DNA of 42,026 bases from Nannocystales bacterium (GTDB lineage Bacteria > Myxococcota_A > Polyangia > Nannocystales > Nannocystaceae), in assembly GCA_050633305.1 (NCBI GenBank), contig JBOEGF010000050.1:1-42026 (forward strand), written 5' to 3'. Position numbers and translations under genes: made by a program. The notes below the pieces were generated by a model. It did not search any database. It was not told the origin of the DNA and saw only the letters and a program-made list of their open reading frames with translations. Shown one piece after another: positions 12,215 through 40,105 of this stretch; within the stretch, counting starts at the first letter, position 1, and each line of letters begins with the position of its first letter.

Positions 12215-13942
12215 TGCGCGAGTGGCCCGGTTTGCGCATCAGCAGCGCCGTGCAGTGGCCAGCTGTCATGCTCAGGCGCGCTACGTTCCCCGGACCCACC
12301 CAGGACAGCGACGCCCTCGCCCTGGTGCGCGAGCACTGGCCTGCATTCCGTGAGCGCCTCGAGGAGCGAGCCGGCTCGCTGCCTCGGTTTGTGCGGGACG
12401 AGCTCGAAGGGTTCATCACTTGCGGAGACTTCGAGCACGGCTTCTTGTTGGCGCAGTGCCGCCGCTGCGGCGACAGCCTGCGTGTCCCGTTTGCCTGCAA
12501 AAGCCGCGACATCTGCCCCTCGTGCATGGGCCGGCGCATGGCCGAGACCGCCGCGCTCCTGGTCGAGCATCGTCTGCCGGCGGTGCCGTGGCGGCAATGG
12601 GTGCTGAGCTTCGAGGGCCCGATGGCGGTCCGGCTGGGCTACAACCGGCGGCTGCTCGGGCGGTGTGTCAGTGGTTTGCCAAGCGGGTGATGCAGACGCT
12701 TCGGCAGCAGAGCAAACGGGAGCATCGCTTGCGCAGCAGCAGCAAGCTGCACCCCGGAGTGCTCATCGTGGTTCAACGTTTTCGCAGCGACCTGGGCTTG
12801 TTCGTGCATCTGCATGCGCTGGTCACCGACGGCTGCTTCGAGGCGCCGGCGGTGGCGGACGAGGCGGCGGTGTTCAGGCCGGCCGATGGCCTGTGCGAGC
12901 AGGACCTGTTGCGGACGCTGCAGCGCTTGCACGGCGACCTCGGTGAGCACCTCGACGACGCCGGCGATGGCGAACCTCTCGACGAAGCGCTCGTGGCCTG
13001 CGTCCAGCTCGGCTTGCCCCTGCGTGCTCTCGGACCGCCGCCCTGCGAGCCCCGGCCCGCCTCGCCGATGCTCGTCCGCGGCTTCGGCATGCAGCTGCAT
13101 GCCGCCGTCACCGTCGACGGCCGAGACCGCAAGCGCCTCGAGCGAGTGTGCCGTTATCTCCTCCGGCCGCCGTTTGCCTTCGACGCCGTGCAGCGGACCG
13201 CCGACGGACAGGTTCGGGTCCACTTCAAGAAGCCCAACCGCTTCGGGGCCACCTACGCCCAGATGACCCCGCACACCTTCCTCGCCCGGCTGTGTGCGCT
13301 CGTCCCCCCGCCCAGGGCCCACACGGTTCTGTACTACGGGGTCTTGTCGGCCCACCACACACTGCGTTCGGCGGTGGTGCCTCGCGCTGAGGAACCTGCG
13401 CTCCAGCCCAAGCAGCTCGCGCTGTTTGTCCCTCGCGGACACGTCGAGTTCCCGGGCACCACAACCTTGCTCGAGCCCCAGCTGCGTGATGCTGCTCCGT
13501 CTCGCCTGTCCTGGATGACGCTTCTCGCCCGCGTCTTTCGCTTCGACATCTCCGCGTGCGCTCGCTGTCGCGGGCCCATACGGGTCACTCGCTTCGTCAC
13601 CACCCCCGAGGACATCGCCGCCGAACTTCACGGTGCTCCGCCACCCCCGTGTCCGCCTGCGCCCGGACAACTCCTGCTCTTCTCGGCTCTGCCCTCAACG
13701 CGCTTGGCTCTGCTCCTGGATGCGCGCCCCTTCGCCCCGCGCTCGTACCGGCGTGCCTGCAGTTTGGCCCCGCTCGCTCCCCGCTCCCCTTCGGGCCCGC
13801 TTTCCCCCCCGACGCCTCCGCTCTCCCAGGCTCACCCCCAATCCACACCCGGCCCCAGCCCCGCTCCGCAGCGACCGCCCTCGCCGCCGGCCAAACCTAC
13901 TCCTCCAATCCTGCTTCTTCCCTGTTCATTTCGCTTAAACGC
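12215..13942 (+). mobile_element. IS91/ISCR-family rolling-circle element (copy 1); left end undefined, right end is putative oriIS
   Basis: Transposase plus ~245 bp pyrimidine-rich 3' region ending TTCATTTCGCTTAAACGC; right boundary defined by six other copies. Confidence 0.9.
12222..13697 (+). pseudogene. IS91-family Y2 HUH transposase with two compensating frameshifts and a lost stop codon
   Basis: Zn-binding CRRC...CKSRDICPSC, HUH motif HLHALVTDG, RLERVCRYLLRPP, YYGVLS; +1 near 12296 (vs 5248 copy), -1 near 12663 (vs 24080 relic); TCA at 13695 where copies 3, 5 and 7 have TGA. Confidence 0.9.
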
Positions 13943-15530
13943 GCGCACCAGCGTCTTTGCCCTGTCGATCTGCCTCCTCCTGTGCGGATGCCGTGACGAA
14001 CCCAGCGACGAGACCGCCGAGGACGAAGCCGGCCTCGATCTCAGCATCCTCGACGCGCCGCCCGACCCACGTTGGCTCGACGCGCCCGCGGACGTTGTGG
14101 CCGGCGGCGTCGAGTTCATCGACCCGGATGGTGCGCTCGAAGGTCTCGAACTGAGCATCACCTCTCGGCCCGTCGAGGGCCTCGTCGGGGGCGTCGCGGG
14201 CTGGTCGATCGAGCCCTCTGGCGAGCTCGACGACATCATCTACGCCCGCTTTCCCCTACCCGACGCTCGGAACCCCGGCGAACCCCTCGTCTTGTGGACG
14301 CAGGCCGACGACGGCTGGTGGACGCAGTCCGTCGGCATCGTTTCCGATGATGGCCAGTCGGCCGTCGCCGCGAGGATCCACTTCTCCGACCAAGCGCTCG
14401 TCAGCCGAGACGCCGCCCGCGAGGCGTTCGTCTCCGGCACCTATTGCAACGGTGAGCAAGCCACCGGCGACGTCTTCAAGGACAATGAGAAGAACCGGAG
14501 TGACCTCAGCGAGTCCGCAATCAACATGCCCATCGCACCTCCAGACGACCGGCCGACGCATGCGTCGATGACCGAGGATCTCACCAACATCTCGCTGACC
14601 CCTGCGGCCGAGTGGGTCGTCTTCAAGAACGAGGAGCGTGCCGGGCCCAGCGAGGCGTGCTGCTGGGAGGGCAACGCATGCTCCTACTCCGGAGAGGCCG
14701 GCTATGAGGACGAAGACTACTTCGGTGATCCTGCGATCGCCGAGCCGCTTCGCCGCCTGGGTGAGCGCGTCCGACCCCTCAGTTGCGGCTCGCTGAAGTT
14801 GGGGGTCTCGGAGATGTTCGACACCGGAACCGCGAAGCGACCCGGCGGTGAGCACTCCGCCAACTCCCTCCACTACGAGGGCCGCGCCATCGACCTCTTC
14901 CTGCTTACAACCGACCCCACCTCCTGGTCGACCCAGTGCGGAGACGATGACCTACGCCGGGGCCGATACGCGCTTGGCCTCAGCCGCCTCGCGCAACTCA
15001 CCGCCGAATCCCGCGACGACCCGACCGCCGACTCTGGATTTGGCTTCGTGAAGTACGAGGTCTTCTCCAAAAACCGCGCCAACAACCACATCCACGCCAG
15101 CGTCCCCAAGACCCACGTCGAGCCTCTCCCCCCCAACACCTTCGAGGCCAGCGTCGAGCTCCGCGGCGAGTCGCTCTCCATGTCTTCCACCGACATGATT
15201 CGAGGCGAGCGCCCCGACGGGACCATGACCCTCACCAGCACCGACTTCGTCGACGACGCCTGGCTCACCGTCACCCTCGTCCTGCCCAACCCCGAAGCCA
15301 ACAGCGTCTTCGAGCTCAGCGGTATGGAGGCCCCCACCCTCGAGGTCGCGCGCGGCGGCGAGACCTCCTACGCCGCGAGCGGAACGCTGGTGTTCGCCCA
15401 GGTCCTGCCGTTTGCCAACAAGAACTACCTCACCACCACCGACGGCACGTTCAACGCCGAGCTCGAGGACGGTGCGGGAAGCGTGACCGGCCGCTTCAGC
15501 GTGGACGACTTGGTCTTCTGGGACCTGTAG
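13943..15530 (+). CDS. Hedgehog-N (Hh/DD-peptidase) domain lipoprotein lacking its own start, fused in frame to the transposase
   Basis: LLCGC lipobox; VFKNEE, LKLGVSEMFD, HSANSLHYEGRAIDL, GFGFVKYE and HIHASV parallel Shh IFKDEE, VKLRVTEGWD, HSEESLHYEGRAVDI, GFDWVYYE and HIHCSV. Confidence 0.85.
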
Positions 15531-15542
15531 CGGTCCTACCGC

Positions 15543-38790: not shown

Positions 38791-39520
38791 TCAGGACCAG
38801 GGGATCCGCTTCCCGGCTCGAACGTCAAAGTGCATCGACGTCGGCGTCGCGTGAAGCACTGCTTCCAGATCCGGGCGAGACCACCCTCGGTCCGACTTTG
38901 GGCAGTAGTTCGAGGTCGCGACCAGCTTTCCCCTGCGGACTCGCCCCTCGACCGTCTTCGCCAGCGTCGCCCTCTCCTCCGCCCACCCGCCTTCGTCCGG
39001 CCACGCTGGACTCGAGCGCCAGTAGATCAGTGCGGCGGTGGCGATCGAACACTTTGGGTGATTGACGATCGCGAACAGCTCGGCGTGGCCGCAGTCCCAG
39101 TTGTGTTTCTCCGCCACGTTGTGCAGCGCACGAGTGCCCTTCCGGTCGATGTCCCGTCGGAAGGCTCGACTCGCCTCCAAGGCTTCTGCCACACCATCCC
39201 GAGCGCACAGGAGCATCTCCGCCCCCCGCATCGTGAGGAAGTCTTCCACGGCCATACCAAGCTCGTCTTGGGACCAGCGCTTCCACGCAGGATCATGCCA
39301 GCTCTCGAAGTCCCTCAGCATCTCGCCGTCGTCAAGCAGCGCGATCGCATTGCTGAATGCCTCCGATGCGGCAACATCGCGGAGGCTCCGATAGGCCTCG
39401 GTTTGGTGTGGGTCGATCAGAGACGCGGCCCAACGGTCCGCTTGCTCCATCGTCCGCGTTCGGAGCTCGACGAGACGCTCCTGGCTGCCCTCGAACTCTG
39501 CGCGTGCCCCAGCCCTCACC
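38791..39520 (-). CDS. DUF4274-like protein (start uncertain; frame open to 39777)
   Basis: LHNVAEKHNWDCG...IVNHPKCSIATAALIYWRSSP. Confidence 0.6.
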
Positions 39521-39767
39521 TCCGCGGTAGAGCGGCTCTTCTCTTTTCCCACGCGAACACAGACGCCCCACAACCCGAGCGGTTGCATCTGCTGGTAGAG
39601 ACGCGCGTGAGGCCGATCGGTCTCAGGGCGCAGGCGCCGAACCGCAGTCTCGTGTTTCAGGTGGAGGCGTTCGGGCCCGCTCGCGACGCGCAGAGGACAC
39701 GGGCACGACGACTCAGTCTTCGCAGTCCCCCTCGGGAACGCGCCACGGAGTCTTCGGGTCCGGTAGG

Positions 39768-40105
39768 CCGAGGACATCGCCGCCGAACTTCACGGTGCTC
39801 GGCCACCCCCGCGTCCGCCTGCGCCCGGACAACTCCTGCGCTTCTCCGCTCTGCCCTGAACGCGCTTGGCTCTGCTCCTGGATGGGCGCCGCTTCGCCCC
39901 GCGCTCGTACCGGCGTGCCTGCAGTTTGGCCCCGCTCGCTCCCCGCTCCCCTTCGGGCCCGCTTTCCCCCCCCGACGCCTCCGCTCTCCCAGGCTCACCC
40001 CCAATCCACACCCGGCCCCAGCCCCGCTCCGCAGCGACCGCCCTCGCCGCCGGCCAACCCTACTCCTCCAATCCTGCTTTTTCCCTGTTCATTTCGCTTA
40101 AACGC
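39768..40105 (+). repeat. IS91 3'-end copy 7 (~338 bp)
   Basis: Matches ~13606-13942. Confidence 0.95.

Follow-up and report, generated by a model that had tools for sequence, protein, structure and literature searches.

IS91 transposition is initiated at an essential oriIS, located downstream of tnpA, and proceeds with displacement of the bottom strand until terIS is reached; the intermediate is a single-stranded (bottom-strand) circle carrying an ori-ter junction, and no target duplication arises, as outlined by Fauconnier et al. 2026 (PMC13181058). In the same account terIS is often missed by IS91 and IS1294, DNA of the left flank is then mobilised, and one-ended events reach up to 53% of transposition events for IS91. 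For IS801 in Pseudomonas syringae, Bardaji et al. 2011 (PMC3189936) report that 26% of the events in the native host were right-end fragments (229, 360 and 679 nt), each bounded by a left-end-like tetranucleotide, and that 0.7% of events carried pieces of the adjacent gene to the left of the element. ISCR elements are described as forming a ‘sandwich’ of an oriIS-only remnant, cargo and an oriIS copy in one orientation, the cargo being thought to have been captured between the two (PMC12772301, citing Yuan et al.). Here we analyse a 42-kb stretch of DNA from a Nannocystales bacterium (42,026 nt, hereafter the window), in which seven right, or ori, ends of an IS91-family insertion sequence (IS) stand in one orientation and are separated by pieces of unrelated genes. 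We favour, with a probability of roughly 0.55, the reading that this array has accumulated through serial one-ended rolling-circle transposition of ends that lack the terminator (ter).

Seven co-oriented ori ends of an IS91-family element

The 18-nt word TTCATTTCGCTTARACGC occurs seven times in the window, always on the + strand and always at the last bases of a copy of the element (Table 1); none of 100 shuffled windows contained it (0 expected). The copies are 93-97% identical to 12212-13942 by BLAST and pairwise alignment, and they have a common 3′ end and variable 5′ starts. The earlier note, made from the letters of this DNA, had reported seven + strand copies with the same terminal base, 5′ truncation of copies 2-7 and separation by 1.5-9.8 kb; the shared end was confirmed at all seven positions, and alignment reproduced the lengths and the spacing (spacers of 9768, 3548, 2133, 1688, 5417 and 1480 bp, here A to F). 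Copies 2 and 7 are broken at the identical position of the element and have unrelated upstream DNA, and the 5′ breaks of copies 4 and 6 lie about 6 nt or less apart. All five identifiable genes that adjoin a 5′ break (gyrB, a sigma factor gene, a C10_404151-like fragment, cheR and a DUF4274 open reading frame (ORF), at 23710, 27595, 30129, 31964 and 39767) are on the − strand, antisense to the IS.

Copy 1 encodes the domains PF14319 Zn_Tnp_IS91 (E 6.4e-17, in frame 11722-12687) and PF04986 Y2_Tnp (E 1e-19, in frame 12354-15527), the translations placing a frameshift near 12650-12660 that splits the transposase; the translated sequence includes HLH, a HUH-type triplet. The genome bin to which the window belongs (G000) has just one further near-full copy, C40:23990-25723, which is 83.5% identical and has an in-frame stop. 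No intact transposase was found in G000 by tblastn, which matched the N-terminal part at seven loci and C-terminal parts in 36 of 45 matches; since no intact transposase remains, the array in this genome is a fossil. In the same-genus genome G002, copies have apparently intact open transposase frames of 521 and 520 aa.

The constant end of the copies, which lies downstream of the transposase gene, corresponds to the ori end; in the C40 relative the stop codon of that gene is about 250 bp upstream of it. Mapping of ori ends across the bin, as the earlier note had proposed, gave about 20 loci, seven of them in the window; at these loci, which represent several diverged sublineages, the terminal ~45 nt ending in ...TTCGCTTAAACGC are conserved. 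The last bases, ...AAACGC, are nearly invariant, and no target consensus was seen beyond the terminal CGC. An empty-site check of the lone truncated copies on contigs C24 and C47 of G000 found no usable orthologues of their flanks in five same-genus genomes.

Comparison of ten left ends (from G002, from a further congener, G004, and from C40) places the true start of full-length copies about 100 bp upstream of the position equivalent to 12212. Since this stretch is part of the element, copy 1 is truncated too and all seven members of the array are without the terminator; the truncation that had been described for copies 2-7 thus holds for them, and extends to copy 1. Within the window the ter region occurs only in a fragment at ~5155-5382, which is 95% identical to 12212-12350 over 139 bp and aligns with the left ends of full-length copies over a further 90-100 bp upstream. 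The GC-rich inverted repeat of the ter end, GTGGCC...GGCCAC, is kept in 11 of 12 aligned left ends and is paired in the minimum-energy fold; the energy of this fold does not improve on that of shuffled sequences (z −0.06 to −0.40). Two full-length copies at G004:C27:84900-85100 are preceded on the left by a tandem run of the octamer GCTGCCGA.

Judging by its protein domains and the organisation of its ends, the element is a member of the IS91 family. Helitrons are recognised by a Rep-helicase (RepHel) protein, 5′-TC...CTRR-3′ ends and a 3′ hairpin. The element studied here begins with TGGCC... and ends with ...TTAAACGC, unlike the Helitron ends, and Pfam found no helicase domain in any window ORF of at least 110 aa, Y2_Tnp and Zn_Tnp_IS91 being the only domains on the element. 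It is therefore not a Helitron. Resistance-gene domains were absent from the Pfam matches of the window.

Table 1 Copies of the element and other features of the window
Feature	Position	Strand	Remarks
Left-end (ter) fragment	5155-5382	+	Inverted repeat GTGGCCCA...TGGGCCAC; downstream of cytolysin-like gene; right side cut at 5382
Copy 1	12212-13942	+	1731 bp, longest; ~100 bp of ter end absent (Pfam, left-end comparison)
ECF sigma	17736-18665	−	Pfam, nucleotide match
Ser/Thr kinase with TPR	18341-21115	+	Pfam, nucleotide match
gyrB fragment	21989-23710	−	C-terminal 574 codons; ends at 5′ break of copy 2 (Pfam, blastx)
Copy 2	23711-24047	+	337 bp; begins at master position 13607 (alignment)
IS91-family transposase relic	24070-24390	+	Old/diverged, 36-38% amino-acid identity; just right of copy 2 ori end
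Sigma-70 fragment	27157-27595	−	Region 4 only; 83% to G000:C18:974858-975296; ends at 5′ break of copy 3
Copy 3	27596-27996	+	401 bp; 16-nt tandem duplication at 27949-27980
Copy 4	30130-30276	+	147 bp (alignment)
Spacer D	30277-31964	−	One chromosomal piece, homologous to G000:C13:134576-135830
Copy 5	31965-32730	+	766 bp (alignment)
PfaC-like (FabA/AT) polyunsaturated fatty acid synthase, internal fragment	32731-33490	+	Begins at copy 5 ori end (blastx)
IS3-type OrfA (HTH_Tnp_1)	36859-37938	+	Unrelated IS inside spacer E (Pfam)
Copy 6	38148-38287	+	140-144 bp (start 38144-38148); terminal word TTAGACGC, G replacing A
Inverted IS91-family transposase relic	38513-38647	−	73-78% amino-acid identity over 44-45 residues
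Copy 7	39768-40105	+	338 bp; 5′ breakpoint same as copy 2

Broken genes in the spacers and their source

The contents of the spacers were mapped by Pfam and by blastx against the rest of G000. In the 834-residue stop-to-stop frame of the intact G000 gyrB, the gyrB fragment corresponds to residues 261-834 and is without the N-terminal ATPase part; it has no stops or indels and shows 95% amino-acid identity to the GyrB encoded on contig C15 (blastx). Spacer D (1.7 kb) exactly fills the gap from the copy 4 ori end to the copy 5 5′ break. In it, a frameshifted zf-HC2/Ser-Thr kinase gene is represented by its N-terminal 257 residues and CheB-CheR by its C-terminal part, with an intergenic stretch between them. 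The PfaC-like piece corresponds to 278 residues, about 1336-1613 of a 2913-residue stop-to-stop frame. Collinearity with G000:C15:176791-182794 extends over at least 6 kb and includes the region 17727-21106, and older IS91 relics are located in spacers B and F.

Homology of the pieces to intact loci (on C15, C18, C13 and C19 and, for the Pfa piece, in the congener G006) stops at the junction base, namely at 23710, 27595, 30277/8, 31964 and 32731/2, with a microhomology of 0-1 nt. A tblastx comparison with the DNA that lies beyond the breaks in the intact loci found no complementary half of gyrB or CheR in the window; the DNA beyond the sigma break is likewise absent from the window, where tblastx gave only generic matches to kinase paralogues. 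At each of the four breaks, the DNA that follows directly in the intact locus is single-copy in the assembly. The earlier observation that the two flanks of a copy never rejoin into one gene is supported, and the spacers hold partial duplicates of genes that are intact elsewhere. Among the names given to the flanks, gyrB, the IS91 relic, sigma, the kinase, CheR and the PfaC-like synthase were borne out by Pfam or blastx, but ‘membrane gene’ and ‘intron reverse transcriptase’ were not confirmed; to the left of copy 6, where the latter had been placed, nine ORFs gave no Pfam match at E<=0.05, and no Rfam family matched anywhere in the window.

The intact homologues in G000 are only 78-87% identical to the window pieces. 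The gyrB fragment differs from the intact G000 gene at 29, 19 and 180 first, second and third codon positions over 574 codons without gaps or stops, which is the pattern found between orthologues of sister species. This level of identity, and the preponderance of third-codon differences in gyrB, mean that the intact G000 genes were not the donors. Thus the spacers do have intact counterparts in the genome, as had been anticipated, but these are too diverged to have supplied them, and the proposed local library of own-genome fragments is not supported. No closer source was found among same-genus genomes, the best matches being the G000 loci themselves (83%), followed by those of G001 and G002 (81-83%); in a gyrB tree the fragment falls into an unresolved group with G000, G001 and G002. 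The template of the gyrB fragment was therefore a functional gyrB in a different lineage of the genus. Either the array was built in such a lineage and then transferred, or the window contig (C50) comes from a co-occurring sister species that was binned with G000.

Several further observations concern these regions. Spacer A was considered as the native flank of an array adjacent to gyrB, as in G002, and this was rejected: only gyrB and the stretch downstream of it (window 21114-23724) are common to both, the rest being collinear with G000:C15. Of the co-oriented arrays of truncated ori ends in G002, the largest (C18:105000-183000) ends 8.5 kb from the intact G002 gyrB, and its proximity to that gene, set beside the gyrB fragment in the window, may be a coincidence. 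The first 600 nt of the IS3-type region (36850-37938) match the ends of contigs C21 and C51 at 95-98% identity, which makes this element common to the window and the rest of the bin. At the end of the contig, 41613-41767 holds two identical 76-nt units 79 nt apart, and 41619-42026 is similar both to C14:347451-347864 (87%) and to the initial 327 nt of C26; it is thus a further repeat family located at contig ends. A dense 9-21-nt periodic repeat with 30 overlapping register copies occupies 2303-2821, within ORF 2119-2907, and looks like low-complexity coding sequence.

Probable one-ended transposition in the genus

Arrays of this kind are not confined to the window but genus-wide. The ori-end word, counted with up to two mismatches and with the reversed pattern as a control (0-1 matches), occurs 92 times in G002, 67 times in G001, 46 times in G004 and 20 times in G000, and 1-3 times in three other congeners. 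A ter-region word of equal length was found 13 times in G002, 11 times in G004 (control 4) and five times in G000 (control 1); the resulting excess of ori over ter, ~7:1 in G002 and at least 4:1 in G004 and G000, is approximate, as the ter motif may be less conserved. In the same-genus genomes, too, ori ends are clustered and co-oriented. A 110-kb region of G002:C18 has 20 matches to the element, 14 of them on the + strand, where ten co-oriented, 5′-truncated ori-end copies (45-958 bp aligned) stand together with one internally deleted and one full-length copy; in the three cases with homologues of both flanks, the left and right flanks lie on different G000 contigs each time.

The loci examined contain 46 distinct truncated copies or 5′ breakpoints, 25-947 bp in length. 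CG stands at offset 0 or +1 in 22 of the 46 breakpoints, compared with ~13% per position, the boundaries being accurate to about ±2 nt and the copies not all independent. Both kinds of one-ended product known from IS801 and IS91, right-end fragments and carriers of left-flank DNA, seem to be present. Full-length copies have nested left flanks, with common stretches of 30 bp in some of them, ~70 bp in others and 370 bp in two, the longest reaching into the 3′ end of a cytolysin-family gene. On G002:C29 a GGDEF fragment, a truncated copy, a 3′ piece of the cytolysin gene with spacer and full IS, and another truncated copy follow each other in direct joins, and the cytolysin-IS segment would represent a read-through unit that sits directly behind an ori end. 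The gene-IS arrangement of this unit is intact in the window at 3302-5382. Units are also duplicated within G002: a 1326-bp composite of two truncated copies on C20 recurs 5.7 kb away at 98.6% identity and ends exactly at the ori end, a 1295-bp duplicate (96%) ends a few bases before a truncated copy, and a 439-bp duplicate (91%) starts at an ori end.

The open frame at 3302-5047 (+) of the window matches the Thiol_cytolysin family (cholesterol-dependent cytolysins; Pfam E 3e-49) and has a paralogue on C10 with only 38% identity; the 3′ end of the frame and the downstream IS left end reappear as transposon cargo in G002:C29.

From these comparisons we infer the order of events and the mode of landing as follows. 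Transposition would start at the ori end and run leftwards; an early stop inside the element would yield ter-less ori-end copies, of which all seven window copies would be examples. A ter-less copy could be remobilised only by read-through into the DNA on its left, dragging along a piece of it, and units of cargo plus ori end, or bare ori ends, would then land directly behind a resident ori end. They might do so by action of the transposase at the ori-adjacent word, or by homologous recombination of a circular intermediate with the resident copy; the latter route would also yield the observed tandems of full and truncated copies. Repeated landings would build a head-to-tail, co-oriented array with spacers made of partial copies of genes from elsewhere, and later unequal crossing-over, deletions and insertions of other IS would blur the units.

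A number of observations weigh against serial one-ended transposition. No significant ori hairpin was found, folds of 13853-13950 on either strand being worse than the shuffle mean (z +0.6 and +1.06); a function of this end is supported by its conservation alone. Had a truncated copy inserted normally, the ori-adjacent CGC of the family would be expected in the intact gene immediately behind the joint, but it is absent in five of five gyrB orthologues and in the sigma homologue; the CheR gene has it in G000 and not in G002. Terminal CG(C) is common to the element and the flanking homologue in two of four comparisons, in which its assignment to element or flank is ambiguous. An insertion in gyrB, moreover, should be lethal, and in none of the genomes searched did a donor locus with such a cargo/IS joint turn up. 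The reading does not explain how the joints between gene fragments and the interior of the IS were first formed. Extra steps are also needed where spacers are composite: the right end of the PfaC-like fragment (~33490) adjoins no IS, and G002:C18:157801-161012 consists of at least two pieces. Finally, the 100% identity between truncated G002 copies could reflect gene conversion and not recent movement.

Several of these difficulties would disappear if an ori-initiated strand, cut or stalled inside the element, were to join or copy an unrelated single-stranded locus (e.g., a lagging-strand template), which would create the joint between gene and IS interior de novo and leave the donor undamaged, much as Helitrons are thought to capture fragments. 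The missing CGC at the gyrB and sigma joints and the presence of an essential gene, gyrB, as a partial extra copy suit such direct capture, as do the several unrelated pieces joined in the spacers without any IS and a donor-like locus, G002:C13:55187-56481, that has no ori-end word within 30 kb (matches on C13 at 19298, 25078 and 200453). Since the five identifiable genes at 5′ breaks are all antisense to the IS, a transferred bottom strand would run into their sense strand. Direct capture is nevertheless unlikely: microhomology of just 0-1 nt at the joints is poor for template switching, no experimental precedent for trans-joining by an IS91-family transposase was found in the literature searched, from which subscription journals were largely missing, and the same structures can arise if ter-less ends read through and the donor is later lost. 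It is correspondingly doubtful that this IS91 lineage routinely joins prematurely terminated strands to unrelated single-stranded host DNA, copying pieces of genes, even of essential ones such as gyrB, into growing arrays while sparing the donors. Premature ending with direct joining to other loci, as put forward in the earlier note, was overstated, read-through from ter-less ends being an equally good or better source of cargo.

That the array is a graveyard of reorganisation also seems rather improbable to us. Complete and truncated copies would then have inserted independently in a dispensable, IS-rich region, where deletions, unequal crossing-over, end-joining and other IS shuffled the flanks and removed the 5′ parts, leaving the gene pieces as leftovers and not as cargo. 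The authors of the IS801 study ascribed most genomic IS801 fragments to such reorganisations and not to one-ended transposition, as reported in PMC3189936, and the mosaic distribution of polymorphisms across the seven copies, the segmental duplications within arrays, the IS3 and older IS91 relics inside spacers and the joints between fragments without an IS are all in keeping with it. Random deletion, however, should leave ter and ori fragments alike, which is at odds with the excess of ori ends, and it would hardly keep the exact terminal base in all copies or produce recurrent, CG-enriched breakpoints. Furthermore, gyrB and the kinase, CheR and Pfa genes exist intact in every same-genus genome with a listed match; the pieces in the window are additional, partial copies of them, and the halves that these pieces lack occur neither in the contig nor in the assembly.

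The array could, in principle, be an artefact of assembly or binning, the contig being a false path through metagenome repeats and the order of its parts unreal; we regard this as very unlikely. The window coincides with one whole contig of a 90-contig bin (11.0 Mb, completeness 92%, contamination 1%), and its gene fragments resemble orthologues of another species of the genus. Only two public runs matched the window, both weakly (shares 0.16 and 0.07). Their Logan contigs are short and of low depth, and among the rows listed they neither span nor conflict with the majority of junctions. Of the 12 junctions of copies 2-7, only 27996/27997 is seen to be bridged, by a 343-nt contig of one of these runs, X1, which may itself be the source sample. 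The junction of the copy 4 ori end with spacer D had no exact match in public metagenome contigs, where own-genome records may be excluded, making this result uninformative. On the other side, the junctions between unique DNA and the interior of the IS are themselves unique, and a k-mer graph cannot invent them; a false path could reorder the spacers, but each would still have an ori end as its left neighbour and a truncated copy as its right one. The copies also differ from each other, the longest exact run common to any pair being 31-118 nt. The strongest counter-argument is the similar architecture of three other assemblies; the contigs of G002 reach 2.15 Mb, so its arrays are unlikely to be short-read artefacts.

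A joint 24521->32297 listed for a public run was disregarded, as one side comprises only 25 letters and 18 foreign letters stand between the two. The 16-nt duplication of copy 3, which sits just before the terminal word, is absent from the X1 contig that covers it.

Comparison with described systems

The pick-up of host genes by rolling-circle transposons is still debated for Helitrons, and for IS91 and ISCR elements it is known mainly from whole resistance genes beside complete elements. Its many ter-less ori ends (dozens in a genome), its arrays of uniform orientation, its partial gene copies and the open transposase frames of some members make this genus a tractable natural system in which one may ask whether cargo is acquired by left-flank read-through only or also by trans-joining, and how units join behind resident ori ends. 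A further question is the share of such arrays in the pseudogene load and in the new chimeric genes of large genomes. If one-ended transposition and reshuffling account for everything, the arrays are an ordinary extension of well-documented IS801/IS91 behaviour to a new lineage; direct joining, if true, would be a bacterial counterpart of the gene-fragment capture by Helitrons, open to experiment through the apparently intact transposases of the relatives.

IS801, as described in PMC3189936, resembles the present element in its fixed ori-end fragments, the occasional cargo from the gene on its left, the many truncated genomic copies and a transposase acting in trans. The earlier note held that junctions inside the element set this array apart from known behaviour; the internal right-end fragments of IS801 contradict this. 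The differences are that truncated ends are stacked here in co-oriented arrays, that the cargo derives from unlinked genes including gyrB, that breakpoints are many, the loci examined giving 46 distinct lengths of truncated copies, and that the ori-adjacent word is CGC where IS801 has GAAC/GTTC; the present system is, besides, known from sequence alone. An essential oriIS, an often-missed terIS and mobilisation of adjacent DNA are shared with IS91 and IS1294, but IS91 read-through, in the account of PMC13181058, retains the whole element, whereas all members of the array lack ter. The ISCR sandwich has the same one-way order of oriIS remnant, cargo and oriIS copy, but its cargo consists of whole resistance genes on plasmids or integrons; here, housekeeping and signalling genes are broken, the setting is the chromosome of an environmental bacterium, and seven or more ends stand in a row.

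Helitrons, represented by Helraiser (PMC4778049), likewise use a two-tyrosine rolling-circle transposase of a related HUH class, depend on one essential end while the other is a weak terminator, and leave truncated copies and chimeric arrays of host gene fragments; they read through the 3′ terminator, so that the polarity of capture is different, in addition to the differences in helicase domain and ends. Internal termination and cargo pick-up are thus already documented for IS801, IS91 and ISCR elements, and what is unusual here is the scale: seven or more stacked ter-less ends, joined to broken, unlinked chromosomal genes that include an essential one.

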